Positions 7,590 through 53,019 of a stretch of DNA of 64,000 nt are shown piece after piece (the first letter of the stretch is position 1; every line of letters begins with the position of its first letter). The notes under the pieces are model-generated. The model saw only the letters and a list, made by a program, of their open reading frames with translations, did no database searches and was not told where the DNA came from. Origin of the DNA: Thermodesulfobacteriota bacterium. Its GTDB lineage: Bacteria; Desulfobacterota_D; UBA1144; Nemesobacterales; CSP1-2. Made by a program: the position numbers and the translations under genes. Location: positions 12,219 to 76,218 of the forward strand of contig DATMAT010000052.1 of the NCBI GenBank assembly GCA_035559815.1. The letters are read 5' to 3'.

Positions 7590-7626
7590 AGGTATATCTC
7601 CTCATGGCAAGTGGATAAGGCGAAAA

Positions 7627-8811: not shown

Positions 8812-10294
8812 GCTGATATTTCTCTTCTGCCTCAATTTTTTTAAAAGAGTTGTTAATAGAAGAAGTGACCGGGAGCTCTTTCCCAATTGCGTGTATTAAC
8901 TCTGCGTAAGACCTATGGAGGCTCGTCCTGGCTTGAACCCGTTCTGCTCTGGCCTCGGTGAGCGTACTCTGAGCGTTGAGTAACTCCACTATGTCTCCCA
9001 CCCCGGAACGGTAACGGGCAAGCGAAGCTTCGTATGATTTCGTTGCGCTCTCCAGGAGCACCTCGCTTGCCTCCAGTTGCTCTACCGCAGTTCGGAAATT
9101 GTAATAACCGTTCCAGACCTCAGATATAACCCTTTCCTCTTGAATGGAAAGGGCTGCTTGAGCCGCTTCGAGATTCGCACGGGCCTGACGAACCTGATTA
9201 ATAAGCGAAAAACCCTGAAAAATCGGGAACTGGAGACCGACTAAGAACTGATAGCTAAAGCTATTGTCGTCAACACCGCCCCTTACCACTTCAGGCTCTA
9301 ACAACGCGCTCGCAACTAGCTGGGGCCATTGGGCAGATTCAGCCTGCCTTACTTCAGCCTCTTTTTGAAGCACAACCGACCGGGCAGCAGCAAGGTTCGG
9401 CCGATTTTTCTGAGCCTCTGCAATCAACTCTTCGACGTTTTCAGAGACGGAGTCAAGAGGAAACTCCTTCGGTTCATCCTCCACGTCAAAGGGGGTATTA
9501 GCCGGCCATCCGACTGCGGTTGCTAACTCTCCACGGGATATCTCAATAGCACCTCGGTCAGTCGCTATATCCAGTTGCACCTGGGCTACGGTTGATTTCG
9601 CCTGCAATACATCGACAACCGTTCCTAGCCCTACCTGTAGTCTTAATTCCGCCGCTTGGAGGCTTGTCTCCGCATCTTTCAAACTAGCCAGGTCAGCCTG
9701 TAACTGCGCCTTGTTTCCGATAAGGGTGTAATAAGCCTCCGCCACGTTGCGAAGTACATCCTGTATAGCCTGGTTATGGGTCCAGTTGGCATTATACAGC
9801 GCCTGCTTAGCCGCTTCCACGCCGGCGCTGCGGCCGCCGAAGTCAAGAAGGAGATAGTTAAGCGCTACGCTTGCTGTACCGATAGTCTCGGTAAAGGAGC
9901 TTGACCCTTCGTTCTGACCACCTTTTGCTTCTTCGACCGAGAGAACACCGCTAATATCCGGATAATAGCTACCACGTGCCACAGCCCAGGCTGCAGCAGC
10001 CGCACGCGCCTGTTCCCATGCTTGGCGAGTGGCCGGACTCTGACGTAGTGCCGCGTCAACGAGCTGTGATAGGCTTAACTTCTCTGCAGATGGCTTTAAA
10101 TCAGGCGGTATCGTTGGAAGCCTGTCTGATGACTGCACGCTAGGTAGGTGATTCGGTGGAGGTTGCCATTCTTCTCCCGGATCAGGAGCAGCATATTTCA
10201 TCGGATTTAGTTCTGGCAGATTTTGTACGCATGAAGTGGAAGTGATAATACATAGCAGTAGAGCCGGCGCAAAACAGAAAGAATGTCGCGACAT
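8798..10294 (-). CDS. TolC-family outer membrane efflux protein; likely start at internal ATG 10294 (MSRHSFCFAPALLLCIITSTSC signal peptide) rather than track start 10405
   Basis: Two TolC-like repeat halves, Ala/Gln-rich coiled-coil segments; first gene of OMP-MFP-RND operon. Confidence 0.85.
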   Translation of the reverse strand: MSRHSFCFAPALLLCIITSTSCVQNLPELNPMKYAAPDPGEEWQPPPNHLPSVQSSDRLPTIPPDLKPSAEKLSLSQLVDAALRQSPATRQAWEQARAAAAAWAVARGSYYPDISGVLSVEEAKGGQNEGSSSFTETIGTASVALNYLLLDFGGRSAGVEAAKQALYNANWTHNQAIQDVLRNVAEAYYTLIGNKAQLQADLASLKDAETSLQAAELRLQVGLGTVVDVLQAKSTVAQVQLDIATDRGAIEISRGELATAVGWPANTPFDVEDEPKEFPLDSVSENVEELIAEAQKNRPNLAAARSVVLQKEAEVRQAESAQWPQLVASALLEPEVVRGGVDDNSFSYQFLVGLQFPIFQGFSLINQVRQARANLEAAQAALSIQEERVISEVWNGYYNFRTAVEQLEASEVLLESATKSYEASLARYRSGVGDIVELLNAQSTLTEARAERVQARTSLHRSYAELIHAIGKELPVTSSINNSFKKIEAEEKYQHDEN

Positions 10295-10639
10295 AAAGGA
10301 CCTCGATTGAAATAAACACTTAACATTAGATGTCACACTGCGGGTAAGATAAGCAAAATCAAATTCGTCAGAACTGATACGCTTCAAATTTAAGTCCTTC
10401 CTCAATGCTAAACAGAAGGATCGCCGTCGATTCGATTATCGGATATGCTGACAAAGCTGTAGAGAGAAAATAAAGAACCCATCCTTCAGTTAAGTTATGA
10501 TTATCATTGATTCACATTTTTGTCAACGAAAAATATTGTTACTAAATATCTCCACAATTAAAATTAAATAATAAGCAAACTCAAACTTGTGCGAAATAAG
10601 AGATTGCTTCGCTGAAATTAGAAAGGGATAGAGTTTCTT

Positions 10640-15345: not shown

Positions 15346-15375
15346 TTGACTTCATATTTTGACCTGATCTATAAT
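15346..15375 (+). promoter_or_regulatory. Sigma-70-like promoter TTGACT-N18-TATAAT
   Basis: TTGACT 15346-15351, TATAAT 15370-15375; would read toward the 15561 gene. Confidence 0.4.
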
Positions 15376-15560: not shown

Positions 15561-16391
15561 ATGGGAATGTTAACCTCCACTCAGGGTTGGTCTATTAGGG
15601 GTATTTCCTTTCAATCTCTACAGGATCTTATAACCAAAAATAAAGGCCGAATAAGAATAAATAGTCTGCCTATCTCTCTATTAGCTTTAGAGAGAAAGCC
15701 AATACCTTCAACAAGAAATGATCTCAGGAAAAAGATCGGGTTGTTTCATTGGTTAATAATTTTATTGATTCTCTTCGTATTTGTAACTCCTACCCGCGGG
15801 GACTGGGGTATCCCCGATTCAGTCGGGGATCGAGAGGGAGGGGAGTCAGGGAACTACCTAATTGGAGAAGAAGCCGATAAAGAATCAAGAGAGCACTCAA
15901 AGAGTAAGTCCAATTTTGTCCTCACCATAAAAGACAACCTTGTATCTTTAGATGCAAAAGATGCTTCGTTAGTAGAGATTGTAGAAGAGATAGGAAGCAG
16001 GATGAAAATTGAAGTGATTTCCGATATCTCTGAAGAAAAGAAGGTTACTGTGAAGTTTGTCGAGCTTCCCCTAAAAGCCGCCATAGAGAGGCTAAGGGAG
16101 TTTGCGGATATTGCTTATATAACAGTTCCCAAAAATCCTCCCTCTAAGATCACTACCTCAGATCCCAAGGATTCGGAGGGGGAGGAAGGGAAGATTACAA
16201 AAATACTGGTGTTTCCTAAGGGCAAAGGAGTTGAAGTATCTGAGCCTGATGTCAGTACTAAGAAAGAAGAAGCCGTAGAAGAGGATGTTCCGCAAATGGA
16301 AGCTGAAGAGGAAAAGGTTGGCGAAGAAGAGGCTTCACAACCGGAGCCCTTTAAATTCGAGTTCGATCCCTCGGAGTTTGAGGAGGAGTAA
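15561..16391 (+). CDS. Membrane-anchored hypothetical protein with secretin/TonB N-terminal (STN)-like domain and highly acidic C-terminal tail
   Basis: TM helix IGLFHWLIILLILFVFV; segment NFVLTIKDNLVSLDAKDASLVEIVEEIGSRMKIEVI...VTVKFVELPLKAAIERL resembles STN / FecR-C-terminal-type domains; E-rich tail. Confidence 0.4.
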   Translation: MGMLTSTQGWSIRGISFQSLQDLITKNKGRIRINSLPISLLALERKPIPSTRNDLRKKIGLFHWLIILLILFVFVTPTRGDWGIPDSVGDREGGESGNYLIGEEADKESREHSKSKSNFVLTIKDNLVSLDAKDASLVEIVEEIGSRMKIEVISDISEEKKVTVKFVELPLKAAIERLREFADIAYITVPKNPPSKITTSDPKDSEGEEGKITKILVFPKGKGVEVSEPDVSTKKEEAVEEDVPQMEAEEEKVGEEEASQPEPFKFEFDPSEFEEE

Positions 16392-16484
16392 TAGCAATAT
16401 TGAAGATTTATGAATAAGGATTAGGGGTTGAGAAAATAAAATATTCTAACGCACGTATTATGCAAAGCGAAGGAGGATGGGGTC

Positions 16485-19400
16485 ATGAACGAAGTAAGAA
16501 ATAAAACAAAGGGAGTAAGTAGAAGGATTACCATATTCCTCTTCGTAATTGCCAAAGCCGCCGCTTTATTCGTGGCTAGTTCTTCCTCAAGCTTTGCAAT
16601 AGAATGCCCGGCGACCTGTCCCGGAACGGGGGTTGCGTGCACTTTTCCCCCATGCTGCTTTGTTTCTCCAGACGGAGTAGCCGAATGTGTAGAGTGCCTA
16701 AGTGACGATGACTGCTCTGAGGGTAACCAGTGCAACGTCGAAGCGCATACATGCACGCGACCGCCCACGTGCAGCAGTAATAGCGACTGCGTAGACCCAG
16801 TCCGCCCAATCTGTGATTCGGGCAATTGCGTGCCGTGCACAAAGGATGCCCAATGCAGCCCGTCAGTCTGCAATGAATCGTCAGGCCAATGCGTACAGTG
16901 TACAGCCGATGCCGAGTGCCCATCAGGCTTAGTTTGTAATGACACATCAAATACATGCGTACAGTGCGAGACTAAGGACAACTGCGCTCCTGACGAATTC
17001 TGTAACCCTGAAAAATTCACATGCGAAAAGCTACCACCTCCGGTGGATTTAACTATTGCCAACATAGAAATCACTCAAGCGATTCAGGACTTCGATAATG
17101 TTGTGCCCCTCGTTCAAGACAAGACCACCTATGTGCGTGTGTACCCCAAAGTGGATATAGCCGAAAGGCGTGTCGAGGCGCAGCTCCGTGGGTTTCGCGA
17201 TGGTATGGAGATTTCCGAGCCCTTAAGGCCAGTTAACCGCTTTGTCACTGTTCATCCAACTGGCGCCAAGCGCGACACGTTGAACGACAGTTTCAACTTC
17301 TGGGTGCCTCCAGCCTGGCGCTCTGGCACCGTGACGTTTCAGGCTGAAATTAACCCTAGCGGGGCGATAATTCCTGTCCCTGAGACAAATACCAGCAACA
17401 ATATTTTTAGGCGCACCCGAACGTTTATAGCAAAACCACCCGTCTGCATAACTATGATCCCAGTGCGTACCCATGGGTCGCTCTACACCGTGAATAGTCC
17501 CGGATTCTGGGGTATAATCAAGCGCTTCGAGAGCCTCTGGCCGGTACCCAAAGTCAACGTCTTTTACCAATCCACCCCGATCTCGAAGCTTGAGCCACCC
17601 TTTTTTAAATTTGTTCCCTATGAACTGCCCAAAAATAGTGCGAGGGTTCTTAATGCCTTGATTCAGCGTCGTTTCTTCAGCAGCGGAGTTGTGTGTCCAT
17701 CGGGGTCCCCATTCCGCACTGTGGGAATGGTCAGTCCGGATACCATTACGGGAGGTGTTGCAGGTGCCGCCTACCATACACACACCGTAGCTTGGGTGCA
17801 GATGGAGCCGTTTGGGGTGTTGTTCAACACGCCTCCTGGTGGGGTGACCATGGCTCATGAACTAGCCCATAACTTCGGGGATAAAAACCGCTGGAGGCAT
17901 GTTCCTTGTCCGCCACCGGGTCAACCGGGCGCACCAGACGACATCAACCCGGACTATCCATATCCTACAGACCAGATTGGACCTGACCGTCCCGATGCCT
18001 TCTGGGGATTCGACCCGATTAGCAAGGCGATTATTTCGCCGAAGCTTGGGAAAGACTTCATGTCCTACTGTCCCCAGGAGTGGGTTTCGGACTACAGTTG
18101 GGAAAACATATTCTTCGAAATCAATCTGCGCACCGTAGCTGCCCGATCTCACGAAACGGGGAATGCGCTGGTAGACCCCCATCAAAATGCCGAAATCCTG
18201 GTGGTGGGCGGAGTCATTGCTCCAGCCACGAATGTTGCGACCTTCGACTACGGCTACCGGCTATCCCAAGACATGGTCAGCGCGGAAACGTTGGAGGAAG
18301 TGCAGCCCGACCAGGATACAACCTCTGACCCTGAGACTACTTACGGACTGGAGTTGTTGGATACCAGTGGTGCTGTGCTCTCCTCACTACCTTTCGAACC
18401 CATAAAGGACACGGCGACTGAAAATGCTGAGCAAGGTTTCTTTCTGACTGTACCCTTCGATTCTAGGACGGCACGGGTGCGTATCACCCGGAACGGCAAA
18501 GAGCTGGGAGGGTTAACTGTCAGCGCGAATGCACCACAGGTTAGACTTCTGCAACCCATCGGTGGCGAGGTGATCACCGATCGCTTGACTATCCGTTGGG
18601 AGGCCAGCGATCAGGATAACGATCCATTGTTCTATACCGTCCAGTACAGCCCGGATTCAGGCGCAAGCTGGCAAACACTGGTCACTCAGACTCCGGAAAC
18701 AACCTTGACCCTAGATGATACCCTTAGTCTACCGGGCAGCGATCAGGCCTTGATCCAAGTAATCGCCAGCGACGGCGTTAACACCGGCTCGGCCACTTCC
18801 GATTCTTTCACCGTCCAGTCCCATGCACCGGTGGTCCACATTGATACTCCAAGCAATCAGGCTATCTTCGCGTTTAACAGTCAAGTCATCTTCACAGGTG
18901 GCGCTAGGGACGCCGAGGACGGTCCACTTGGCGATGAATCGCTGAAATGGCTCTTGAATGGTCAGGTGCTAGGTATCGGTGAGGAAATTGCCTTGGACGA
19001 ATTGGCGCCGGGTGATTATGACATCATGCTAGAAGCAGAGGACAGTGATAATAACAAAGCTGTCGCCAGCGTGACAATTACTATCGTGGATGGCATGCCC
19101 GTCGCCAGTAACGACAGCTATAGCACCCCTGAGAATACTCCACTGACGGTGGACGCGCCGGGCGTTCTGGGCAACGACATTGATGCGGAAGGCGACCCGC
19201 TAAGTGCGATACTGGTCAGCGATGTGAGCAAAGGTACGCTAACGCTCAACGCCGACGGCTCCTTCACCTATACACCTAGTGCTGACTTCAACGGTACAGA
19301 TAGCTTCACATACAAAGCGAATGATAGCACGGCCGACTCCAACGTCGTTACCGTCAGCCTAACGATTGGAATCGTTTCCATCGTGTGTCCAGATTGTATA

Positions 19401-19769
19401 CCACAGATTGTTAACGACCTTGTTACATTTAATCCTATTAAATCAACTTTTAGGACCACCTCTGATACCTCTGGTTGTCCATCCGGGTTTGTTGGGAAAT
19501 TTAGCTTTGAGTCAAGACTTACAAACATAAGCGATAGCTCACTTTCTGACCTTACAGTTCAGGTTGCAGAATTGACGAATGAAAACCTGTTACAGAATGC
19601 CAATGGAGGGCCGGATGGAGTAGGAGCGATATTGACAGTTCCAAGTGTAAGTGCTTATTCAGATGGGATACTTAGCCCGGAAGAATCTGTAGATGTTCCT
19701 TTTGTAATATGTTTAAAGAATAAAAACCCATTCAGGTTCTTTGTGGATGTGTTGGGGATAGTGCAGTAG
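16485..19769 (+). CDS. Giant secreted protein with five CxxCxxDxxC-type Cys-rich repeats, an HExxH zinc-metallopeptidase-like domain, tandem-95/Big_9 (VCBS-like) Ig domains, and a conserved ~120-aa C-terminal module
   Basis: Signal peptide; repeats CVECLSDDDC...CTKDAQC...CETKDNC; HELAHNFG motif; ANDSYSTPENTPLTVDAPGVLGNDIDAEGDPL...FTYTPSADFNGTDSFTY; C-terminus ...FFVDVLGIVQ shared with 22312-24411 protein; RBS GAAGGAGG. Confidence 0.8.
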   Translation: MNEVRNKTKGVSRRITIFLFVIAKAAALFVASSSSSFAIECPATCPGTGVACTFPPCCFVSPDGVAECVECLSDDDCSEGNQCNVEAHTCTRPPTCSSNSDCVDPVRPICDSGNCVPCTKDAQCSPSVCNESSGQCVQCTADAECPSGLVCNDTSNTCVQCETKDNCAPDEFCNPEKFTCEKLPPPVDLTIANIEITQAIQDFDNVVPLVQDKTTYVRVYPKVDIAERRVEAQLRGFRDGMEISEPLRPVNRFVTVHPTGAKRDTLNDSFNFWVPPAWRSGTVTFQAEINPSGAIIPVPETNTSNNIFRRTRTFIAKPPVCITMIPVRTHGSLYTVNSPGFWGIIKRFESLWPVPKVNVFYQSTPISKLEPPFFKFVPYELPKNSARVLNALIQRRFFSSGVVCPSGSPFRTVGMVSPDTITGGVAGAAYHTHTVAWVQMEPFGVLFNTPPGGVTMAHELAHNFGDKNRWRHVPCPPPGQPGAPDDINPDYPYPTDQIGPDRPDAFWGFDPISKAIISPKLGKDFMSYCPQEWVSDYSWENIFFEINLRTVAARSHETGNALVDPHQNAEILVVGGVIAPATNVATFDYGYRLSQDMVSAETLEEVQPDQDTTSDPETTYGLELLDTSGAVLSSLPFEPIKDTATENAEQGFFLTVPFDSRTARVRITRNGKELGGLTVSANAPQVRLLQPIGGEVITDRLTIRWEASDQDNDPLFYTVQYSPDSGASWQTLVTQTPETTLTLDDTLSLPGSDQALIQVIASDGVNTGSATSDSFTVQSHAPVVHIDTPSNQAIFAFNSQVIFTGGARDAEDGPLGDESLKWLLNGQVLGIGEEIALDELAPGDYDIMLEAEDSDNNKAVASVTITIVDGMPVASNDSYSTPENTPLTVDAPGVLGNDIDAEGDPLSAILVSDVSKGTLTLNADGSFTYTPSADFNGTDSFTYKANDSTADSNVVTVSLTIGIVSIVCPDCIPQIVNDLVTFNPIKSTFRTTSDTSGCPSGFVGKFSFESRLTNISDSSLSDLTVQVAELTNENLLQNANGGPDGVGAILTVPSVSAYSDGILSPEESVDVPFVICLKNKNPFRFFVDVLGIVQ

Positions 19770-19861
19770 AGAGGAAGTAATGTGGATTGAATGTAGATTG
19801 AACATTAATAGTTTTTATTCAAAAAATGTTCTAACGCGTATAGCGTGTAGAGTCAAGGAGG

Positions 19862-22201
19862 GTGGGTATGGAGGGAGTAGAGAGTAAGATAACGGAAGTA
19901 AGTAGGAAAGGGAGAACAGAGAAAGAGCGCATATCTACAGTGCTGAGGACATATATCGCCCGACGGACGCTGTGGTTCAGCTTACTGCTGGCAACGGCAA
20001 TTCTGCTTGTGGCAGGTATCGCACCAGTTGGGCACGGACAGGCAGGCGGTCAAGTAGAAAGTTATGTGTTTGCCGAGGTTGAGAACCGGCAAATGCCTCT
20101 ATCTGGAGTCACGGTCTTCGTTGAGGATGTGTTTACCTCGACTCCGTCCAAGAAAGTCAAGACCGACCTCAATGGACGGTTCATAGTGCCTGAGCAACCA
20201 GCAGGGACCTACCAACTCTGCTGGGAGGCACCTGGTTTTGTAGAAGACTGCAGCCCAGACCTAATCGATATCGATAACAGTAGAGTGTTTTTATCGCCCA
20301 TTGAAATTAATCCTGAGGGCGGTGTAGTCTCGGGGCATGTCACCATGGCTGATGGGACCCCGTGCCATTACTTTGATCCTTTCTTTGAGATAGACGTTTC
20401 CGCGTCTGTAGCGCTCGTAGACGGCATGGGCATGGAGGTTGCTGGCCCTGTTCTTGCTAATGCGTCCGGTGATTATTTGCTGACCAGCGTTCCTTCAGGA
20501 ACCTTTAGGCTTAGAGCCACCTGCGAAGCCTCCATGACCGAAGAAACGCTTACGACGAGTGAGTCTGCGATTATTGTTAAGGATTTGACCTTCGAGAATC
20601 AGAAGCCTATTGTTTCAAATGTTGTTACGACTCTAAATGGTCAGACAGTCCAAGGGGTTCCGAGGAATACGACGGTCGAGGTCACCGTAAGTGCTACGGA
20701 CGCTGACGGCGACTCGCTTCATTACAAGTGGGCTACGCCAGTGCCCGGCTTGACTTCCGTAGATTCACCCACTATTCAGTGGACCCTGCCCAGGAGCCGC
20801 GGATTACACACGCTTTACGTTCTGGTTTCGGACGGCAGAGGAGGATACCAGATGGGCCGTGCGGAAGTCTCGACAGACGGAGGTGTCGTCTTCTCTAGTA
20901 CAGGGCAGTCCCGCACGGCATTGGCACTGAGTACCACATCTGCTTCGTCATCTCCGCCCTCCTCCGACAATTGTTGTACTGAGCAAAACCATTTCCTGAC
21001 CTTCAACGGCATAGACTTCAGGAGTAGCGCATGCGCATATTACGAAGCGATCGGGGCAATCACTAAAGGTGATAAAAAATGCGATCCGAATTCTATCTCA
21101 CAACCTAAGGGTATAACTTTTAATGAATGGAAAAGCAGGAGTGGCCTCGCCGTCAACCCTGATTTCAACCGAAACGGCAACCTGTTCGATGATGATAACT
21201 TCACAGGGGAGGCGAGTGCTCTTTATTTAAACGCGGTAGACCTAAATTTAGGCAGGTCTATGCACGGAAAAAGTGGTGGTGGCAAGGTAGCCTATTACGT
21301 CTGTAACTATCCAACGTTAAAAGATGCCAGGCGCAACAGAAACCGCATAGCCTGCGTTGCCATGGATCGTTCTGTGGTCCAGGGTGTTAATGGGGATAAC
21401 CCCTTCACTAGGTTTTACATATTTGGTCCCGGAGGAGATCTGCGTCTATCCGTCGACCTTGACGTTAGAGGCGAAAAGTTCATGCCGGGTGTTTGTACGG
21501 TCTGTCACGGGGCAAATGATGATCACGCACGTAAGAGATTTGCCAGTACAACAGAGGCCGGTAACCCAGACTTAGGCGGTCGCTTCCTGCCGTTCGATCT
21601 CGATAACTTCAGGTATTTGGTTAGTAGCCCGTCATTTAGCAGGGGAGCCCAGGAGGACAAATTCAGGCGGCTGAACCAAATGATTAAAGATACCAACATT
21701 GCACCGGTCGTCCGGCAACTTATAGACGGCGATATAAACGATCCCAACGACGGCTGGTATCCTGGCGGGACGGGCAAGCAACAAAGTGACTTTGTGCCAC
21801 CGGGGTGGGGGGACGATCCCAACACGCAATTAGACGAGAAGGAACTGTATCTGAACGTGGTAAAACCTTCGTGCCGAACCTGCCATGTCGTTATGCGCCC
21901 GCGGTTCAACTTTAACCGATTCGAAAACCTCGACATGAATGATCCCAACACTCCCCCGGACGACACAAGAGGAAGCTTTAAGGATCAGAATACTATTAAT
22001 GACAAAGTCAATGCGACCTTAATACGAGGTCATGTGTGTAGTGCTTATGACATGCCGAACTCCCTGGTTACGTTCGACCGGTTCTGGCTGAGTAGGGACA
22101 CGCAGCCCGAAATCCTCGCGCCGAAGGTTCTCGAGGAGTTCCTACAGGGTGCATTGAATAATTCGAATATTAAGTGTCCAGACCCTCGGACGGTGCCGTA
22201 G
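19862..22201 (+). CDS. Large secreted protein: carboxypeptidase-regulatory-like beta-sandwich domains, Ig-like domain, and C-terminal region with two CxxCH heme c motifs
   Basis: N-terminal TM/signal; LNGRFIVPEQPAGTYQLCWEAPGF; CTVCHG and CRTCH motifs at residues ~545 and ~673. Confidence 0.7.
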   Translation: MGMEGVESKITEVSRKGRTEKERISTVLRTYIARRTLWFSLLLATAILLVAGIAPVGHGQAGGQVESYVFAEVENRQMPLSGVTVFVEDVFTSTPSKKVKTDLNGRFIVPEQPAGTYQLCWEAPGFVEDCSPDLIDIDNSRVFLSPIEINPEGGVVSGHVTMADGTPCHYFDPFFEIDVSASVALVDGMGMEVAGPVLANASGDYLLTSVPSGTFRLRATCEASMTEETLTTSESAIIVKDLTFENQKPIVSNVVTTLNGQTVQGVPRNTTVEVTVSATDADGDSLHYKWATPVPGLTSVDSPTIQWTLPRSRGLHTLYVLVSDGRGGYQMGRAEVSTDGGVVFSSTGQSRTALALSTTSASSSPPSSDNCCTEQNHFLTFNGIDFRSSACAYYEAIGAITKGDKKCDPNSISQPKGITFNEWKSRSGLAVNPDFNRNGNLFDDDNFTGEASALYLNAVDLNLGRSMHGKSGGGKVAYYVCNYPTLKDARRNRNRIACVAMDRSVVQGVNGDNPFTRFYIFGPGGDLRLSVDLDVRGEKFMPGVCTVCHGANDDHARKRFASTTEAGNPDLGGRFLPFDLDNFRYLVSSPSFSRGAQEDKFRRLNQMIKDTNIAPVVRQLIDGDINDPNDGWYPGGTGKQQSDFVPPGWGDDPNTQLDEKELYLNVVKPSCRTCHVVMRPRFNFNRFENLDMNDPNTPPDDTRGSFKDQNTINDKVNATLIRGHVCSAYDMPNSLVTFDRFWLSRDTQPEILAPKVLEEFLQGALNNSNIKCPDPRTVP

Positions 22202-22311
22202 GATGAGCCCGCTATCCGTGTCCTCAAAAAAAGCGGTGCGGCTGAGCTTGGGCACCAGGTTGTAATTCATTAGTTTTTCAAATGTAGTATATGGAACAGG
22301 AGGATGAAGTT

Positions 22312-24411
22312 ATGGGAGCTTGCAAAAATGAAATTGTAAAGTTTTTCTTAGGTTTATTTTTGATTTTTTTTGGATTCGGCGGGCTCACCACAGGTTTTCT
22401 CTTGTCATCAAGTAGTTTTGCTGCCGTTTTTAATGTTATCACCGATGCCGATCTACACGATGCCCTTCTTAAAGCACGGAATAACGGTGAAGCAGATACC
22501 ATAGTTATAAGGGCAGGAGATAGGTTGAACAAGACCCCTTTTAGATACACCGCAGCATCAGGAGAAAATTTCGCTCTCACAATAATGGGAGAAGGTGTAG
22601 GACAAACCCTTGATGGAGAGAGAGCTAGAAAGGTGTTATTGATCGATACCTTTAGTAATCTTGAAGACGATTCTAATGCCCACATAACCATAAAAAATCT
22701 GAGTATAACGAATGGCAGGAGTACTGATGGATTTGGTGGCGGTCTTTTTGTCTGCACCGGTTCTGCAAATGTTACTATTGAGAACTCTACTTTCTTTAAT
22801 AACTCTGCTACTTTTCCAGGAAGCGCCTTTGGAGGGGGAGCCGAGATTGATACTCTTTCAGGGGATGTAACACTAACAAAAAACAGATTTTCAAGTAACT
22901 CTGTGATGTCTTCTTCAGAAAGCGCTTTTGGAGGTGGGATCGATATTCTCACTGAGTCAGGAGATGTAATATTAAAAGATAACACATTTACCGACAACTT
23001 TTCTGCTTCGTCTAACTCTTCCTTTGAATTCTTTACTTCCGGAGGCGGGGCTAATGTTTTTACTAGTCATGGAACTATAACACTAACAAATAACATATTT
23101 ACAAGGAACCGTGCTACTTCTTCTTTAGGAAGCACTTCTGGAGGCGGAGCTTCTGTTAGGACTGATGAAGGAACTATAACACTAACAGTTAACATATTTA
23201 CTAACAACTCTATTAATTCCTCTAAAGGATTCACTCAAGACGCTCAAGGAGGTGGAACCGATGTTTTCACAAATTCGGGGAATGTAACACTAACGAGTAA
23301 TATATTTGTCAGTAACTCCGTTCGTTCTTCTGATTCTTCTACTCCAGACGTTTTTGGAGGTGGGGCTGTGATTGGTGCTGGTTCAGGAACTATAAAACTA
23401 GCAGGAAACACATTTGGCATTAATACTGTTGATTCTTCTAATTCTTCTTCAGTAAACGCCTTTGCAGGCGGGGCTGAGGTTTTCACCGATTCGGGAGGTA
23501 TAACACTAACAAATAATATATTTCACAATAACTCTGCTACCTCTTCATTTATTGCTTTTGGAGGTGGAGCCGATGTCTCCACTGGTTCAGGAACTATAAC
23601 ATTAACAAATAACACTTTGACATTGAATTCTGCTACAGATGGAGGAGGTTTGAATGCAGGTGCCTTTAAGGATACCTCCACTATCAATATCTTTAACAAC
23701 ATCATCAGGGGTAACATAGCCAGAAATGACATCTTTCTAGATGAGGATGGAGACGGGAATGGTACTGCCTCGCCTGTAAATCTCTTTAATAATGATTTCT
23801 TTGCTTGCTTTAGCAGCTTTGCTGATGCAACACCATGCACAAACTTTCCACACATAAATAACGGGAATAATATAATGGCAGACCCTCTATTTGTAGATGC
23901 TGCAAATGGAGACATCCACCTTAAGTCAGGCTCCCTTGCCATAAACAGAGGAGACCCCCTTGCACCAGCTCTTCCTGACACAGACATTGATGGAAACCCC
24001 AGGATTATTGGACCTGCCCCAGACATGGGAGCCGATGAGTTTGTTCTTCCAGAGCTAGTGATTGTTAACAACCTTGTTACATTTGAACCTATCAAATCAA
24101 CATTCAAAACCACTTCTGATACCACTGATTGTCCACCTGGGTTCGTCGGGAAGTTTATGTTTGATGCAATGCTTACAAACACAAGCAGTGAACGACTCTC
24201 TGACCTTATGCTTGTCGAGGTCAAAATATTAACAAATGATAACCTACTACTGAATGCCGATGGAGGGCCTGGGGGAGTGGGAACAACATTAACAATTTTT
24301 TCAAGTGGAGTGTTTAGCCCTGGGGAATCTGTAAGAGTTCCATTCATTATATGCTTAAAAAACAAAAAGAGATTCGGTTTTTTTGTAGATGTATTGGGGA
24401 TAGTGCAGTAA
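22312..24411 (+). CDS. Secreted right-handed beta-helix protein with Chlamydial Pmp-like (GGA[ILV]/FxxN) repeats and the same conserved C-terminal module as the 16485 protein (track start 22291; ATG 22312 follows RBS AGGAGGA)
   Basis: Repeated FGGGA...NNIFT(R/S)N units about every 22 aa; DPLFVDAANGDIHLKSGSLAINRGD...DIDGNPR beta-helix terminal motif; C-term ...FFVDVLGIVQ. Confidence 0.8.
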   Translation: MGACKNEIVKFFLGLFLIFFGFGGLTTGFLLSSSSFAAVFNVITDADLHDALLKARNNGEADTIVIRAGDRLNKTPFRYTAASGENFALTIMGEGVGQTLDGERARKVLLIDTFSNLEDDSNAHITIKNLSITNGRSTDGFGGGLFVCTGSANVTIENSTFFNNSATFPGSAFGGGAEIDTLSGDVTLTKNRFSSNSVMSSSESAFGGGIDILTESGDVILKDNTFTDNFSASSNSSFEFFTSGGGANVFTSHGTITLTNNIFTRNRATSSLGSTSGGGASVRTDEGTITLTVNIFTNNSINSSKGFTQDAQGGGTDVFTNSGNVTLTSNIFVSNSVRSSDSSTPDVFGGGAVIGAGSGTIKLAGNTFGINTVDSSNSSSVNAFAGGAEVFTDSGGITLTNNIFHNNSATSSFIAFGGGADVSTGSGTITLTNNTLTLNSATDGGGLNAGAFKDTSTINIFNNIIRGNIARNDIFLDEDGDGNGTASPVNLFNNDFFACFSSFADATPCTNFPHINNGNNIMADPLFVDAANGDIHLKSGSLAINRGDPLAPALPDTDIDGNPRIIGPAPDMGADEFVLPELVIVNNLVTFEPIKSTFKTTSDTTDCPPGFVGKFMFDAMLTNTSSERLSDLMLVEVKILTNDNLLLNADGGPGGVGTTLTIFSSGVFSPGESVRVPFIICLKNKKRFGFFVDVLGIVQ

Positions 24412-24476
24412 ATGCAGGATACAAGATACAGGATGCAAGATAGTGCATTCATCATGTATCATGTATCAGGAATCAT
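24412..24476. repeat. Degenerate tandem heptanucleotide array (ATGCAGG ATACAAG ATACAGG ATGCAAG ... ATGTATC ATGTATC), about 9 units
   Basis: Read directly; a second array with the same words at 25715-25778. Confidence 0.7.
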
Positions 24477-24494
24477 TTGATTAAGGAGGTAAAA

Positions 24495-24698
24495 ATGTCA
24501 GAGAAAGTAGACGAAGAAAAGGAGCAGGAGGAGAAGTTAGATATTTCTCAAAACAAGAAGCCATTTGCAGAGCCGAAATTAACGTTCATCGAGCCGAAGC
24601 TTACAAAGCATGGGAATGTTACTAAGACCACTACTGGACCTGGTTTCTTTGGCGGGTTTACTCCCCCTCCGGAAGATCAAGAACCTCCTGTAGGATGA
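24495..24698 (+). CDS. Small Cys-free peptide (67 aa), candidate RiPP precursor: acidic/Lys-rich N-terminal part with FAEPKLT/FIEPKLT repeat, Gly/Phe/Pro/Thr-rich C-terminal part
   Basis: MSEKVDEEKEQEEKLDISQNKKPFAEPKLTFIEPKLTKHGNVTKTTTGPGFFGGFTPPPEDQEPPVG; perfect RBS AAGGAGG 5 nt upstream of ATG 24495 (track ORF begins at TTG 24477); immediately upstream of kinase-like and rSAM genes. Confidence 0.6.
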   Translation: MSEKVDEEKEQEEKLDISQNKKPFAEPKLTFIEPKLTKHGNVTKTTTGPGFFGGFTPPPEDQEPPVG

Positions 24699-24711
24699 AA
24701 AATTAACATAA

Positions 24712-25686
24712 ATGTCAATCATAGAGTTTTATTCCATCGTTGATTTAAATGTTCAGATCGAATATGAGAATCAGCAGCTTGCTGAGGAGATAACCAGGGC
24801 ATTTCATGATTACTTCTTCACGACAAAAAACGCTTCAGTTCTCGACTCCTACAATCTAACCTTGAGGTTTAAAAACAATGATTTTTATATTAAAGCACCC
24901 GAAGCGGCTCAGGAAATTTATGCCTCCTCTTGCCTACGTGTTTTTAAGGACGAGAATTTCTATTACTTAATAAGTGGGGATTCTCTATTCCAACTCGATC
25001 TTGGAACTAGCCTAGGAATCGGGTTACTAGATTCTGCTTTCTGGGAAAGACACCCAAGATCCAAACAGGACTTTCTTATGCTTTCCCTGCTCTGGCTCCT
25101 TCGCCAACACGGCGTATATGCGCTACATGCAAACGGTGTAGTGAAGAACGATGTCGGGATTCTTATCGTCGGAGACACTGGAAAGGGTAAGTCAACGACA
25201 GCGCTCAGCCTAATAAGGCAGGGCTGGGGGTATCTATCGGATGATGTCACCCTCATCAGACACACATTAGATGGTATCGAAGCTATAGCATTTTTAAAAG
25301 GGTTTTCATTTGATTCGAGTCTGGTCAATTGCTATCCGGAACTTAATAAACCTTCATCTTTTAATGAACAGAAGAGATTTTTGGATATTAAGCAGATATA
25401 CCCCGGAAGATTTCGACATAGTTGTTTTCCAAAAGCACTGATATTTCCAGAGATAGTATCTAATGACAAGAGTGAATTAATTCCGATTGATAGGACGAAG
25501 GCTCTGGTCCTTTTAGCTGAAAACAGCGGAGGGATAATGGTAGATAAGGAGATAGTAATTAAACAAATGGAGGTTCTTAAAAGACTTGCATATCAGACTT
25601 CGAGTTATAAACTCCTCGCAGGGCGTGATTTGTATGAGGAGTCGGAGAGGATTTCTGAAATTCTTTTAGATTTAGCCACAAATTGA
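24712..25686 (+). CDS. HPr kinase/phosphorylase C-terminal-domain-like P-loop protein (HprK-related kinase)
   Basis: 324 aa; ILIVGDTGKGKSTTALSLIRQGWGYLSDDVTLI matches the HprK Walker A / catalytic region (GDSGxGKSExALELIxRGHRLVADD). Confidence 0.7.
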   Translation: MSIIEFYSIVDLNVQIEYENQQLAEEITRAFHDYFFTTKNASVLDSYNLTLRFKNNDFYIKAPEAAQEIYASSCLRVFKDENFYYLISGDSLFQLDLGTSLGIGLLDSAFWERHPRSKQDFLMLSLLWLLRQHGVYALHANGVVKNDVGILIVGDTGKGKSTTALSLIRQGWGYLSDDVTLIRHTLDGIEAIAFLKGFSFDSSLVNCYPELNKPSSFNEQKRFLDIKQIYPGRFRHSCFPKALIFPEIVSNDKSELIPIDRTKALVLLAENSGGIMVDKEIVIKQMEVLKRLAYQTSSYKLLAGRDLYEESERISEILLDLATN

Positions 25687-25714
25687 CACAAATGAGCACG
25701 AATGGAAATAAATA

Positions 25715-25778
25715 GGATGCAAGATACAAGATGCATGATGCAGGATAAAAAGATCCATCATGTATCATGAATCGTGAG
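25715..25778. repeat. Second degenerate heptanucleotide array (ATGCAAG ATACAAG ATGCATG ATGCAGG ... ATGTATC ATGAATC)
   Basis: Shares words GGATGCAAGATA and CATCATGTATCATG with 24412-24476. Confidence 0.7.
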
Positions 25779-25833
25779 TTGTGCATAATTTATACTGTAA
25801 ATCCGTGTTTATTCGTGGCTACCTAGTAATAAA

Positions 25834-26871
25834 ATGGCAAGGATAGTAATAGAGCTTACAAATCGTTGTAACTTAAGCTGCACGCACTGCTTTGATGGAA
25901 GGCACAGCGCCGACGGTGACCTGAAGATAGAGATTATTGAAAAGATCCTCCTGAATGCTAAGGCTTACGGCTTTGATCATCTCTCATTCACCGGCGGAGA
26001 CCCGACAGTACATCCCAGATTTATAGAAATTCTTAAGATGGTATATGAAGCCGGATACAAATTCAGCTTTGTCACTAACGGTCAGAACTTCACGAAGATT
26101 TATAAAAATATACTCCCCTATCGTAATAAACTTGCAGGGATTACGTTTAGTCTTGATGGCGCCAAAGAAGATACACATGATAGGCTTCGTGGAAGAGGTT
26201 CATATCGCCGTGTAATGAAAGCTATAAGTATTTGTGTGGTGAAGAATATTCCATTCACCTTTAACATGGTAATTACATCCCACAACCGTGGTGAGGTAGA
26301 AGAGATGGCAGAGCTTGCTACAAAGCTAGGAAGCAGGGGTCTGAGGTTCAGCCATCTTCTGCCTACTCCTTTAACCACAGTTCAAAATCTCGGTCTCTCT
26401 CCCGAGGAGCAAAGGGAGGTAGAATCTACAATTTGGCAACTCCAGAAAAACTCTCCCATGCCAATTGTTATGGCGCCTGGGTACTATACTACTGATCTCT
26501 TTCCTTGTGCGCCCCTGCAGATGCAGGAATTTAACATAGACTGGCGGGGTAATGTCACAAAATGCTGTCATCTGTCCAGCCATGGTGGTGACGTGGGAAA
26601 TGAAGATATTATAGGCAGTTTAGCCGAAATGAGTTTCTCTGAGGCTTATGAACGTTTAGTTGAGGCTAACAGGAAGTTCCACAAGGAGAAGCTAGAGCGT
26701 CACGGTGGTGGTGATTTTAAGGACTTAGATTATTTCCCATGCTGGTACTGCGAGAATTATTTCAAGAAAGTAGATTGGCTTCGGAAGTTTCCTAAAAGCC
26801 CCTGGTCTGGAGAGGTTTGGAATAATTTAAAGCAAACTTTGCCGCGAATGGACACAGATAAACACGAATAA
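25834..26871 (+). CDS. Radical SAM enzyme with C-terminal SPASM/twitch-type auxiliary cluster domain; no N-terminal RRE/leader-binding extension
   Basis: CNLSCTHC (CxxxCxxC) at residues 11-18; C-terminal Cys set C..C.P....CC...C...C..C (CAPLQ...KCCHLSS...YFPCWYCENY); 345 aa. Confidence 0.85.
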   Translation: MARIVIELTNRCNLSCTHCFDGRHSADGDLKIEIIEKILLNAKAYGFDHLSFTGGDPTVHPRFIEILKMVYEAGYKFSFVTNGQNFTKIYKNILPYRNKLAGITFSLDGAKEDTHDRLRGRGSYRRVMKAISICVVKNIPFTFNMVITSHNRGEVEEMAELATKLGSRGLRFSHLLPTPLTTVQNLGLSPEEQREVESTIWQLQKNSPMPIVMAPGYYTTDLFPCAPLQMQEFNIDWRGNVTKCCHLSSHGGDVGNEDIIGSLAEMSFSEAYERLVEANRKFHKEKLERHGGGDFKDLDYFPCWYCENYFKKVDWLRKFPKSPWSGEVWNNLKQTLPRMDTDKHE

Positions 26872-29064: not shown

Positions 29065-32000
29065 ATGAAAATTCAGACAAAAATCTTACTCTTACTATTC
29101 CTAGTCATAGGCGCTTTTGTGGCCGGACTCAGTTTCCTGAGGCTTTGGGAAGTAAAAGGGATTGAATCTCTATACTCGGTAGAAAAACAAGAAAGAAAAG
29201 AATCCTTTGATAAATTCCTGGAGCTCAAAGGGGAATCCCTGGAAACGCTAGCTTTTGATTACACTTACTGGGATGAAATGGTTGATTTTCTGAAAACTCG
29301 GGACAAAACCTGGGCGGCCGATATACTGGATACTAGTCTAACCAGTTATAAGGTAGATGCAATGTGGGTTTACAGGACTGACGGCACGCTTGTCTATTCC
29401 GTCACCAAATGGAAAGACCAACAGATAAAAGGTGAGAAGATACCATTGCCAGATGAATCGCTTGGCAAGGTGTTTGAGCAAAGGCGTTTCAATCATTTCT
29501 TTCTGAATACCCCGGAAGGTCTCATGGAAGTACGGGGGGCTACGATTCACCCATCTAACGACGTTGATAGAAAGACTCCACCCCAAGGCTATCTATTCGT
29601 TGGACGTTTATGGAACGAGGGCTACATGAATGAGCTCGCCGGATTAACCGAGAGCACTATAATCATAACACCCTTTGAAGAAACGAAAACATCCGGGGGG
29701 AGCCGAACCGAAGGTGTAATCTCATTTTCAAGAGTATTGACCGGCTGGGATGGCAAACCAGTGGCGCAGATTAATGTCAGGACTGAGTATCCGTTCATTA
29801 AGGAGCTAAACCGTGCATCGGATCGCTACTCCCTTCTATACACCCTCTTTTCGTTTGTCCTTTTCGTCCTTCTCTTTATTTTCATAATGCGCTGGGTAAG
29901 CATCCCTCTAAAATCTATATTCAGGAGTTTAGACCAGGAAGACTCCTCAATCATAAAGGACCTGCAAAAGGACAGAACGGAATTCGGCCAGTTAGCACAA
30001 TTAATAAACAGATTTTTTGAGCAAAGAGACGAACTCATAAAAGAAATCAGCGAACGCAGGCATACGGAAGAGGCGCTCAGCAAGGCTGAACTTCGATACC
30101 GCGAACTGGTTGAAACCGTCCAAGCTATCGTCTGGCGGGCGGACGCACAAACGTTCCAATTCACGTTCGTCAGCAAAGAAGCGGAAGCGCTCTTGGGATA
30201 TCCCACCGAGAGGTGGCTTAGCGAACCACACTTCTGGCAAGATCACATACATCCGGAGGACCGGGAATGGGCCTTATCCTTCTGCAAAGAGGCCACGAGA
30301 GAGAAGAAACCCCATGCTTTTGAGTACAGGATGATCGCCGCCGACGGCCGGGTGGTCTGGCTGAGAGACATAATACGGGTCCTGGTGGAGAACGATGAAC
30401 CCAGAGAACTCATCGGAATAATGGTTGACCTGACCGAGCGCAAGAAGTCGGAAGAGATACTAGAAACAGCTACTCGGGTGCTAGAAGAACATCAGAAAAA
30501 CCTGGAAGCAAAAAATATACATTTATCTATCCTAAGCAAGATCTCACAGGATGTACAGCAGTCTGTTGATTTAGATACAACTTACCGAACTGTACTAGAG
30601 AGAACCGCAGACCTGAGATTTATTGACCTTATGTCCCTTTATCTGGTGGAGGGAGAGGGAGACAAAAGGGAAGCGGTGCTACAGATCCAAAGAGGATATC
30701 CCGAGGACTACGTAAAGAAGGTTGGTAGAATCCCATACCCAACCGGCTACACCTGGAAGGTGATGGAGGGTGGCGAACTGGTTTTCCACGAAGACGCCTC
30801 AGACCCATCGAGTCCGGTCGGGCCCGCTGGTAAGGCTTTGGGACAACGTGCGCTCTTATCCATCCCTATAAAATCAGAACAGAACGAGGTTGTAGGGGTA
30901 ATACACTTTTCCAGCTCCGAGAGTACCTCTTTTGCCCAGTATGAATTTGATTTCCTTTCATCCCTGGGCAATCAAATTGGGACGGCCATAGTAAAGGCCA
31001 AGATGTTAAAGGAGATGAAAAAAAGAGAAGAGGAGCTCGAAGCTACCACCCGGGAGCTTAGAGAGTATCAACAAACCCTAGAAGAAAGAAATAGAGATTT
31101 ATCCATCTTGAGCAAGATTTCCCAGGAAATACATAAGTCCATCGAGCTAAATAATGCCTACAGAATCTTAACAGATTCAACCAAAAATTTGAAACTCTTC
31201 AACCTAATGGCCTTATATTTGGTGGAGGGAGAAGGGGATCGAAGGGAGGCAGTATTACAATTCCATCATGGCTATCCCGAGGATTACCTAAAAAGGGCTA
31301 GAAGAATAGCATACCCAAAGGGTAATACCTGGAGGGTAATTGAAAGCGGAGAGTTAAGTTACTTGGAAGATGCCTCAGACCCATCGAGTCCGGTCGGGCC
31401 CGCTGGTAAGGCCTTGGGACAACGTGCGCTCCTATCCATCCCTATAAAATCAGAACACAATGAGGTAATAGGAGTAATACATTTTTCCAGTTCAGAGAAG
31501 ACCTCCTTCACCAAACAAGAGTTTGATTTCCTCATAGCCCTGGGGACTCAGATTGGAACAGCCATAGCCAAGGCCAGGATGTTTGAGGAAATGAAAAAAC
31601 GAGAAGAGGAGTTAAGAGAAAGAGAAGAAAGACTGCGTAAGATCTTTGAAGATGGCCCCTTGGGCATGGCCATTGTCGGTTTGGATTATCGGTTCTCCAG
31701 GGTTAACCATACGCTCTGCCAGATGGTCGGATACACGGAAGAAGAACTTACCGCACTCACGTTCCCGGACATTACCTACCCAGAGGATATCGATACAGAT
31801 ATACGATACGCCGAGCAGTTGGCGCGAAAGGAGATAACCCGCTACAAAATGGATAAACGTTACATCAAGAAAAACAAAGAGGTTATTTGGGTTACTCTGA
31901 CCGCCTCTATCATACTTGACAGTGATGGAAACCCTCTCTATTACCTGGCCATGATTGAAGACATAACCGAGCGTAAACGGGCGGAGCAAGCAATACAGCA

Positions 32001-50606: not shown

Positions 50607-50609
50607 ATT

Positions 50610-51932: not shown

Positions 51933-51963
51933 TTAACGCCATTGCTGGATCCCGTAAAAGAAA

Positions 51964-52965: not shown

Positions 52966-53019
52966 CAAACTTTACGTAGACATCTTTAAGATTTACTAAT
53001 CATAAGGTTATTTCCCACG

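Follow-up and report, generated by a model that had tools for sequence, protein, structure and literature searches.

A C-terminal beta-sandwich module on exported proteins and its conserved operon point to an undescribed system of protein sorting or surface attachment

Described systems closest to the locus

Among the described systems, the CTD of the T9SS resembles the module reported here in being a folded beta-sandwich of about 80–120 aa that forms the very C-terminal end of many Sec-exported proteins with no other relation to one another, several paralogous cargo genes being present per genome. However, the module has no sequence match to PF18962/TIGR04183 (Por_Secre_tail) or TIGR04131 and no close structural match to these CTDs, and it is sometimes internal. 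Its hosts belong to Thermodesulfobacteriota, Nitrospirota, anammox Planctomycetota and others, T9SS genes are absent from both the window and the conserved neighborhood, and the genes linked to it are instead that of a protein with a putative N0/STN fold and a cassette for the maturation of a peptide. The signals of the PEP-CTERM/exosortase, LPXTG/sortase, GlyGly-CTERM/rhombosortase and MYXO-CTERM systems occupy the same slot as the module, after choice-of-anchor domains, and signals of the PEP-CTERM/LPXTG type also mark many surface proteins and have dedicated genes beside their targets. These signals are composed of a motif, a transmembrane helix and a basic tail, whereas the module is a globular domain of 120 aa with no hydrophobic anchor behind it and no sortase-like protease in its gene set. 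The fold that appears closest to the module is that of CBM2 (3ndy_E, 6qfs, 2rtt), whose members are about as large, mostly sit at one end of secreted enzymes, and are stabilized by disulfides.

The partner genes recall other systems. The partner protein, P180, appears to share its fold with the N0 domains of GspD, PilQ and EscC, with DotD, with the Xanthomonas VirB7, with the signaling domain of FecA and with the C-terminal domain of PupR, which are exported as P180 is. Elsewhere, domains with the secretin-N0/STN fold work in the periplasm as adaptors to outer-membrane channels, and they contact other proteins there at the machines of the outer membrane, often via strand augmentation. Unlike these adaptors, P180 is a stand-alone protein of about 180 aa with its own invariant tail, PFxFxFDPS. 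Darobactin and dynobactin are aromatic peptides made by radical SAM/SPASM enzymes, and they act as rigid beta-strand mimics on BamA. The peptide of the operon likewise has a short core rich in aromatic residues and a radical SAM/SPASM enzyme encoded alongside it, but it shows no sequence relation to them, carries a lasso-type leader, is accompanied by a kinase, and does not belong to an antibiotic locus. By analogy, it may possibly act as a pre-organized strand ligand, as darobactin does.

The phosphorylated lasso clusters (paeninodin, Bradymonadales bsf) comprise A, B1 (PqqD), B2 (Transglut_core3), K (HPr-kinase-like) and N (nucleotidyltransferase). The lasso leader motif is YxxPxL at positions −17 to −12 with a Thr at −2 (PMC10368454). 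The operon shares with these clusters a peptide bearing such a leader (aromatic-xxPxL at −17 to −12, Thr at −2) and, in its fuller loci, homologs of B1, B2, K and N. In contrast to the lasso clusters, it encodes a radical SAM/SPASM enzyme in place of a lasso cyclase and usually lacks an exporter, the Phe-rich octapeptide core is without the acidic residue that closes the lasso ring, and the cassette is tied to genes for secreted proteins.

Two copies of the module and their family

The window, that is the whole 64-kb stretch of DNA that was analyzed, encodes two cargo proteins, both on the forward strand as are all the genes described below. Cargo protein 1 (ORF1094, 1094 aa, 16485–19769, HWP93164.1) is annotated by PGAP as an Ig-like domain-containing protein, and it consists of a signal peptide, Cys-rich repeats, an HEXXH region, Big_7, a cadherin-like/Big_9 region and the module. 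In cargo protein 2 (ORF706, 706 aa, 22291–24411, HWP93166.1), a signal peptide is followed by a right-handed beta-helix, DUF5123, choice-of-anchor Q (aa 537–584) and the module. The BLASTP comparison of the two proteins gave a single significant segment (aa 961–1094 and 579–706, 61% identity over 135 columns, E = 2e-42), every remaining segment having an E value above 0.7, and identity reached 67% in a trimmed alignment. Thus, the sequence-only reading was right that about the last 120 aa are common to two proteins whose N-terminal parts are unrelated. Its description of these proteins as giant was exaggerated, since at 1094 and 706 aa they are large rather than giant, and the HEXXH region behind the metalloprotease label of ORF1094 matches no known peptidase family.

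Copy 1 of the module, with its conserved Cys pair, corresponds to aa 975–1094 of ORF1094 (19407–19766), and copy 2 to the C-terminal aa 591–706 of ORF706 (24061–24408). Their conserved core reads IVN(D/N)LVTF...FFVDVLGIVQ. The likeness is also visible in the DNA, as had been noticed from the sequence: it begins at nt 19407 and 24061, ends precisely at both stop codons, and amounts to 74% similarity over 122 aligned codons. A tblastn search of the 64-kb window detected these two copies only. Each copy has relatives in other organisms, 71–75% identical for one copy and 69% for the other, and the copies are 63–67% identical to each other. These relatives, as close or closer, together with a dS of 0.71 and a dN/dS of 0.33, show that the two copies are old paralogs under purifying selection, which argues against the spread by cassette recombination that had first been proposed.

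The AF2 prediction of copy 1 is an autonomous beta-sandwich (pLDDT 96.4). The Cys pair covaries across the family alignment, and it is on this covariation that the predicted disulfide is based. Phe accounts for every conserved aromatic residue of the family, neither Trp nor Tyr being conserved, and the last strand reads PFxF(F/V/L)VD.

The family comprises 1,536 protein-cluster representatives from Thermodesulfobacteriota, Nitrospirota, anammox Planctomycetota (Brocadia), Acidobacteriota and others, Bacteroidota not being among the hosts. The module lies at most 20 aa from the C-terminus in 99 of the 130 members examined and is internal in about 9%. It is followed by 0–15 residues, the longer tails being polar or basic and devoid of a hydrophobic helix; most members, including both window proteins, terminate 0–5 residues past it. 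The cargo ahead of the module is diverse and exported (beta-helix, propellers, FG-GAP, RHS, cadherin), which bears out the view of a conserved end on divergent cargo, and choice-of-anchor Q directly precedes the module in 24 of 96 members.

No Pfam or NCBIfam model matches either window copy at E ≤ 1, and none covers the module across the 96 family members, in keeping with the earlier impression that it corresponds to none of the familiar sorting signals. NCBIfam sorting-signal models were found neither on the window proteins nor among the 25 most frequent families of the 96 members. A profile search of PDB sequences gave no match, no sequence relation to CBM models was found, and the literature searched contained no description of the module, the peptide or the operon. 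The module is thus neither a match to a known Pfam domain nor restricted to two proteins, as a simple recent partial duplication would be; these were the two outcomes against which the sequence-only reading had set its proposal.

The conserved operon and its peptide cassette

The operon begins with one or more module genes, followed in order by P180, a peptide of about 60 aa, an HprK-like kinase and finally a radical SAM/SPASM enzyme. It occurs in Thermodesulfobacteriota, Nitrospirota, anammox Planctomycetota and others, and fuller versions contain in addition a PqqD, a B2-like protease and a nucleotidyltransferase. The order of the partner genes is fixed across phyla, with gaps of 4 nt in places, and the pairing of the module gene with the P180 gene is tight and frequently translationally coupled. 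This conserved set of dedicated partners matches what is predicted for a sorting or anchoring system. The sequence-only reading had suggested looking for transport or sortase-like genes: no sortase-like enzyme, exosortase, rhombosortase, membrane anchor or outer-membrane channel was found among the conserved neighbors, the conserved set has no translocon or PorU-like peptidase, and the window genes that were scanned include no secretin, T2SS, sortase, exosortase or rhombosortase.

In the window, P180 is encoded at 15561–16391, with 15567 or 15741 as other possible starts. A hydrophobic segment at its N-terminus, a signal or an anchor, precedes a predicted N0/STN-fold domain, and an acidic linker then leads to the invariant C-terminal motif PEPFKFEFDPSEF. 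The family as a whole is exported and is characterized by about 180 aa, an N0/STN-fold domain of about 100 aa and the tail PFxFxFDPS, which resembles the module's own final strand. No Pfam or NCBIfam family covers P180, and neither a secretin nor a TonB-dependent receptor is found in the neighboring genes. Between the two cargo genes lies a module-less exported protein of 779 aa (19862–22201) with CarboxypepD_reg, Big_9 and two C-terminal CXXCH, which is part of the same gene string yet is not kept in related loci. Upstream of the first gene, a near-consensus promoter-like site (15346–15375) is suggestive at most; the promoter and terminator scan gave a result at chance level, and Rfam detected no RNA family in the whole window.

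The small peptide gene (67 aa, 24495–24698) is preceded by AAGGAGG 6 nt upstream of the ATG. The leader is FIEPKLTKHGNVTKTTT, in line with the lasso-type pattern [FY]xxPxL...T(-2), and the core is GPGFFGGFTPPPEDQEPPVG. The peptide of the operon, of about 60 aa with a lasso-type leader and an xFFGxFxP core, belongs to a family of 1,129 clusters. Among 120 peptides retrieved, the leader motif was present in 119, including that of the window, and FF[GNA]xFxP in 113. Typical cores such as QFFGAFSPGRG and AFFGSFRP contain no Asp or Glu at positions 7–9. No Pfam or NCBIfam family covers the peptide.

The HprK-like P-loop protein (24712–25686, motif GDTGKGKST) is related to ScmC and to HprK-related kinases but stays under every family cut-off, and homologs are present in 17 of 33 loci. 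The radical SAM enzyme (25834–26871) carries the CX3CX2C motif as CNLSCTHC and matches Radical_SAM at E = 7e-25; SPASM is weak, at 18.3 bits for a cut-off of 21.5, and no NCBIfam equivalog is reached (best 95 bits, cut-off 380). The gene is found in 15 of the 33 loci, and orthologs that are 67–70% identical adjoin module genes in Thermodesulfovibrionia and Brocadia loci. The leader-processing pair B1 (PqqD) and B2 (Transglut_core3) is present in related loci and absent from the 64-kb window, and no locus table contains an Asn-synthetase-like lasso cyclase. A family of this size (1,129 clusters) that couples a lasso-type leader to a radical SAM enzyme and lacks the cyclase probably represents a new class of modified peptide.

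Anammox members of the module family carry the peptide core, in tails such as GFFGRFRP, fused straight behind the module, and they keep a portion of the leader as well (Pro at −14 and Thr at −2). When module proteins were searched with the peptide HMM, the anammox tails were top-ranked, yet with an E value of just 0.023; for this reason, the argument for a fusion rests on the exact FFGxFxP found at the extreme C-terminus of 12 representatives.

Proposed function and alternatives

We hypothesize that the module, as an autonomous extracytoplasmic beta-sandwich domain of about 116–120 aa with a predicted disulfide closure, is a docking or sorting handle that marks cargo for a dedicated and so far undescribed envelope system. 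We give this reading as a whole, domain and role together, a probability of about 0.5. An N-terminal signal peptide would direct the export of the cargo, and the module would fold outside the cytoplasm; the signal segments, the covariation of the Cys pair and the confidently predicted fold support this step. The co-encoded N0/STN-fold P180 would then recognize the module, acting as an adaptor which either holds cargo on the envelope or passes it across; this step is drawn from the tight and often translationally coupled pairing of the two genes. Finally, the Phe-rich tails of P180 (PFxFxFDPS) and of the peptide (xFFGxFxP) may join the same interaction, probably as strand-like ligands, and the lasso-leader peptide would be matured by the HprK-like kinase and the radical SAM/SPASM enzyme of the operon. 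The conservation of the operon, the fusion of the core in cis in anammox proteins and the likeness of the P180 tail to the last strand of the module are consistent with such a step. The module would thus be a tag on cargo, separate from the activity of the cargo. That the ribosomal-peptide pathway is physically coupled to sorting, the matured Phe-rich peptide being the ligand, anchor or export ticket of the module together with its N0-fold adaptor, is a speculative extension that we hold to be doubtful.

The alternative that survives best, although unlikely, is that the module is an ordinary accessory domain, CBM2-like, which binds carbohydrate or matrix and has been shuffled among proteins, its neighbors being matrix or biofilm genes that only share its regulation and are not physically connected to it. 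CBM2 appears to be the closest fold, but the structural scores sit in the generic beta-sandwich range, no sequence relation to a CBM model was found, and the conserved aromatics are Phe rather than Trp or Tyr. Also, mere co-regulation accounts poorly for partner genes kept in a fixed order across phyla, some with 4-nt gaps, and for the peptide core that anammox proteins carry in cis.

A signal for export across the outer membrane that a translocon recognizes and that is cleaved off after transport, as for the T9SS CTD, would agree with a C-terminal beta-sandwich on diverse Sec-exported cargo, with the slot behind choice-of-anchor Q, and with a paired protein whose predicted fold occurs at secretin and T4SS outer-membrane complexes. 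We consider it improbable, as the Por_Secre_tail and type B CTD models are unmatched, T9SS CTDs are absent among the top structural hits, the host phyla are other than Bacteroidota, and the conserved set comprises no translocon or PorU-like peptidase. Still less probable is the possibility that module proteins are substrates or giant leaders (cf. Nif11/NHLP) of the radical SAM/kinase machinery, in which the module would be the recognition element for modification of the tail. The anammox members, with a peptide core and partial leader behind the module, speak in its favor; however, most members, both window proteins included, end 0–5 residues past the module and have no tail to be modified, the Cys pair and signal peptides indicate folding after export, away from cytoplasmic enzymes, and the operon encodes a separate peptide with a complete leader. 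As to a recent partial duplication or gene conversion confined to this genome, which two copies 4.6 kb apart with visible DNA similarity might evoke, it is ruled out by the dS of 0.71, the equally close or closer relatives of each copy elsewhere, and the 1,536 representatives across several phyla.

Taken together, the module and its operon point to a system, so far undescribed, that sorts proteins or attaches them to the surface, a docking or sorting role of the module being our preferred reading. Biofilms and granules are home to Nitrospira, anammox bacteria, Thermodesulfovibrionia and related uncultured diderms, which are drivers of the nitrogen and sulfur cycles, and the sorting and retention of their many large surface proteins has been little understood so far. 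As the module, P180 and the peptide are in neither Pfam nor NCBIfam, they are now annotated as hypothetical or by the cargo domain only. The module HMM offers a sequence handle on a class of cargo of more than 1,500 protein clusters, along with candidate machinery, and the peptide adds a large, previously unannotated family of 1,129 clusters, whose fixed tie to exported proteins and fusion in cis in anammox bacteria are unusual among peptide-modifying pathways. If the peptide is indeed coupled to sorting, dozens of different exported proteins in each organism would owe their display or release to a peptide-natural-product handle, and anammox bacteria would have that handle fused into the cargo itself.

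The shared C-terminus and its gene string

ORF1094 (window 16485-19769, +) and ORF706 (22291-24411, +) are cargo proteins ending in a common module of about 120 residues. BLASTP gave a single significant segment between them, aligning aa 961-1094 of the former with aa 579-706 of the latter at 61% identity over 135 columns (E 2e-42), or 67% after trimming, and the DNA similarity extends from IVN(D/N)LVTF to precisely both stop codons. The sequence-only reading, which had described a conserved C-terminus, evident also in the nucleotides, on two otherwise unrelated proteins, was therefore right on these points. Outside the module, ORF1094 contains Cys-rich repeats, a HEXXH region, Big_7 and cadherin-like/Big_9 domains, and ORF706 a beta-helix, DUF5123 and the NCBIfam choice-of-anchor Q domain (aa 537-584), which adjoins the module; PGAP named both after their cargo domains only. 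The metalloprotease label attached earlier to ORF1094 found no support: its central HEXXH region (about 500 aa, aa ~190-700, window 17055-18584, MAHELAHNFG) has no Pfam, NCBIfam or PDB-sequence match. Both proteins carry signal peptides, each terminating in SSSSFA, a hexapeptide common to two otherwise different signals (window 16485-16620 and 22291-22440).

No third copy of the module was found in the window by tblastn. The module is under purifying selection (dS 0.71, dN 0.24, dN/dS 0.33 between the two copies). A local duplication is excluded by this dS and by equally close or closer relatives in other organisms (71-75% identity for copy 1, 69% for copy 2). Long antisense ORFs overlie the modules at 23523-24455 (-) and 19268-19528 (-); they were rejected as genes, since their apparent homologs elsewhere are a mere antisense shadow of the conserved module.

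Both genes lie in a string of seven genes (15561-26871), all on the same strand and terminated by a convergent carbonic anhydrase gene; the window stems from a Thermodesulfobacteriota MAG, with proteins HWP93164-HWP93169. The string starts with the 276-aa exported protein P180 (15561-16391, +) and ORF1094, continues with ORF779 (19862-22201, +), a 779-aa exported protein without the module, and ORF706, and ends with a 67-aa small peptide (24495-24698, +), an HprK-like protein (24712-25686, +) and a radical SAM enzyme (25834-26871, +). Besides CarboxypepD_reg and Big_9 domains, ORF779 contains two CXXCH motifs (CTVCH, CRTCH) in its C-terminal region, possible c-type haem sites, and none of the related loci encodes a counterpart. 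In the divergent intergenic region that precedes the P180 gene, a sigma-70-like site close to consensus (TTGACT-18-TATAAT, 11/12) was observed at 15346-15375 (+); the promoter scan overall was not above chance. Elsewhere, the window contains an RND efflux operon with TolC (4455-10405, -), a 1341-aa PAS/GGDEF protein (29065-33090), a sigma-54 activator (37403-39343) and a polysaccharide cluster (49728-63808) with a Wzt-like ABC ATPase, GT2/GT4 glycosyltransferases and a PgaB-like deacetylase fusion. Secretin or T2SS genes are not present in the 64 kb.

A large C-terminal domain family on diverse cargo

The module constitutes a new, large and mostly C-terminal domain family carried by diverse cargo. 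A word-indexed search retrieved 106 clusters in which the module ended 0-15 aa short of the C-terminus. When 1.84 billion representatives were searched exhaustively with HMMER, 1,536 proteins passed E<=1e-3, and 1,173 passed E<=1e-10; hence, the module is not confined to the two proteins in which it was first noticed. No model of it was found in Pfam-A (2025) or in NCBIfam 20.0 (June 2026), as judged from the two window copies (E<=1) and 96 full-length members; the sequence-only reading had likewise seen no match to sorting signals such as T9SS CTD, PEP-CTERM and LPXTG. Profile comparison with the whole set of PDB sequences also gave nothing at E<=1.

Among the top 130 representatives, the module lies at most 20 aa from the end in 99 and at most 60 aa in 118. 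It is internal or N-terminal in 12, followed by the apparent start of a second cargo, which suggests tandem gene fusions. In such proteins (P0213, P0129, P0231, P0167 and P0218, the last with two modules in tandem), a CSLREA or beta-helix start comes after the module, and tandem cargo genes may have been joined by read-through or assembly error. Upstream cargo includes beta-helix, SBBP, NHL, PD40, FG-GAP, DUF5122 propellers, RHS, HYR, laminin-G, papain, CBM9, CLIPPER and DUF7948. Choice-of-anchor domains owe their NCBIfam name to the alternative C-terminal sorting signals that they precede. Choice-of-anchor Q stands directly before the module in 24 of 96 members and choice-of-anchor I in 2, and the module thus occupies the "anchor" slot. 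Among the members examined, the module is followed neither by a hydrophobic helix nor by any known sorting motif. Many module proteins (metagenomic members P0008-P0065; L010:5422-5460) extend 12-15 aa past ...VDVLG and end in hydrophobic-x-Arg (SADAQAKAQLVR, GTVDSGPVASVR, DEGQEQRADNVR), with Lys replacing the terminal Arg in L010; these extensions may represent a second class of C-terminal motif. The only module sequence in the Ca. Anammoxibacter locus (L013:9980-10204) is a degenerate fragment interrupted by an in-frame stop, probably a pseudogene remnant.

AlphaFold2, run on a 54-sequence alignment, predicted a beta-sandwich (mean pLDDT 96.4). Foldseek found no match to this model at E<=1e-3, and the best TM scores, about 0.5, were obtained with CBM2 cellulose- and chitin-binding domains; the predicted fold is a generic sandwich, nearest to CBM2, without demonstrable homolog. 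Conservation is highest in the loop LTNGNLLQNADGGPGGVGA and in the final strand PFxF(F/V/L)VDVLG. Cysteines at module positions 33 and 111 covary (both in 199 sequences, neither in 9, one in 6), which indicates a putative disulfide and, thereby, folding outside the cytoplasm. Export is supported by an N-terminal hydrophobic segment in 47/64 complete members, against 1/64 in a control stretch.

The conserved operon and its peptide cassette

Thirteen loci were taken from one-genome-per-species contigs and 53 metagenome loci were added. The hosts of the 13 are Thermodesulfovibrionia, Nitrospira, Brocadia, Ca. Anammoxibacter, Pyrinomonadaceae, a deltaproteobacterial MAG and a betaproteobacterial MAG. 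Related loci contain tandem module arrays, with up to 5 module matches per locus, and four further families accompany the module genes on the same strand and in fixed order. In the 33 loci that are 4.5 kb or longer, some of them near-duplicates, we counted a P180 homolog in 23, the HprK-like gene in 17, the radical SAM gene in 15 and the small peptide in 12 at the first threshold, additional Nitrospira cases being recognized by eye. At least one partner was present in 28 of the 33, the others being mostly truncated contigs, and the shortest gaps between module gene and P180 are 4 nt. Fuller loci also encode a Transglut_core3 protein (lasso B2-like protease, about 19 loci), PqqD (10 loci) and NTP_transf_5 (10 loci); these three are not in the 64-kb window, whose cassette of peptide and maturation genes is a reduced version.

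The association was also examined from either side. Three peptides on long contigs led to four loci, all with 3-5 module matches and P180, and of four further loci chosen by the module only (contigs 42-330 kb), three contained the cassette, the fourth having IS elements on its flanks and no cassette. As both tests agree, the linkage holds in both directions and extends over at least four phyla. What accompanies the module genes across phyla is an exported protein with a putative N0 fold (P180), together with the lasso-leader/radical SAM peptide cassette.

P180 consists of a signal or anchor helix, a beta-alpha domain of about 100 aa (pLDDT >90 in the AF2 model), a charged linker and a C-terminal PF(Q/K)F(T/E)FDPS, present in 112/120 members. 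The family comprises at least 200 clusters, many labelled "GspD/PulD (secretin)" by the JGI pipeline, and has no significant Pfam match (STN E 0.16, FecR_C E 0.088). Its tail (P-F-x-F-x-F-D) resembles the last strand of the module (P-F-x-F-[FVL]-V-D), a likeness to be taken as a lead only.

The small-peptide family counts 1,129 clusters, every one annotated as hypothetical, and the peptide has no signal peptide. A lasso-type leader (aromatic-xxPxL at -17 to -12, Thr at -2; motif as defined in PMC10368454) was recognized in 119/120 peptides retrieved, and a core xFFGxFxP plus 0-9 residues follows it in 113/120; Nitrospira peptides stop precisely at ...AFFGSFRP. The radical SAM enzyme presents CX3CX2C and a weak SPASM match and reached no NCBIfam equivalog (W_rSAM_matur 95 bits for a cut-off of 380, ScmF 87 for 400), and the HprK-like protein fell below every family cut-off. 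The likeness of the cassette to phosphorylated-lasso clusters extends to leader, B1, B2, kinase and nucleotidyltransferase; a radical SAM enzyme stands in place of the lasso cyclase, which was found in no locus examined, and the ring-closing residue is absent. With this gene content, its lasso-type leader and the xFFGxFxP core, it looks like an undescribed modified-peptide class in its own right, observed at window 24495-26871 and in L023, L035, L041, L048, L055, L073 and L075. The only candidate peptide exporter among all loci is an ABC transporter (ABC_membrane + ABC_tran) at L072:13718-15439, where PqqD and NTP_transf_5 flank it.

One lineage carries the peptide core as an in-cis fusion to the module. 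Anammox-type module proteins (12/236 examined, with diverse cargo) continue for 33-48 aa past ...VDVLG and end in ...(S/T)RVTGKGFFGRFRP(K), which is the core motif of the small peptide after leader remnants (Pro at -14, Thr at -2). Basic tails ...KFRKGSRVTGKGFFGRFRP(K) occur at L006:7549-7698, L007:9388-9519 and L008:10385-10528 and in P0135-P0225. The peptide HMM matched these tails weakly (E 0.023); an exact FFGxFxP at the extreme C-terminus is unlikely by chance, about 1e-6 per protein by our own rough estimate. As the peptide gene lies directly downstream of the module gene in anammox loci, the fusion is mechanistically simple, and it has since been retained on many paralogs.

A proposed docking handle, or possibly a binding module

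We give about even odds (0.5) to the module being a docking or sorting handle that marks cargo. In the periplasm, N0-type domains act as adaptors for secretins, for T4SS outer-membrane complexes and for TonB-dependent transducers. P180, with its putative N0 fold, would similarly serve as adaptor for the module, and the Phe-rich motifs would act as strand-like ligands. That the matured peptide is itself the physical ligand or anchor is a stronger claim, which we consider possible but rather unlikely. The handle reading has weak points: the enzymes that mature the peptide belong to the cytoplasm, a single locus showed an exporter, and the cassette of the window is a reduced one. The module could instead be a plain binding module, as its nearest fold is CBM2-like; we consider this possible but unlikely.

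The module is similar in architecture to the T9SS CTD, but it matches no such model, its hosts belong to the wrong phyla and the machinery is missing. It is likewise similar to choice-of-anchor sorting signals, but again model match and machinery are lacking, as is a transmembrane anchor. Neither an outer-membrane component nor a sortase was found among the window genes or the conserved neighbours, and no description of module, peptide or operon was found in the literature searched. The shared C-terminus is real and more interesting than the sequence-only reading had stated. Behind this visible marker stands a multi-gene system, conserved and so far undescribed, in which exported proteins are coupled to a pathway of peptide modification.
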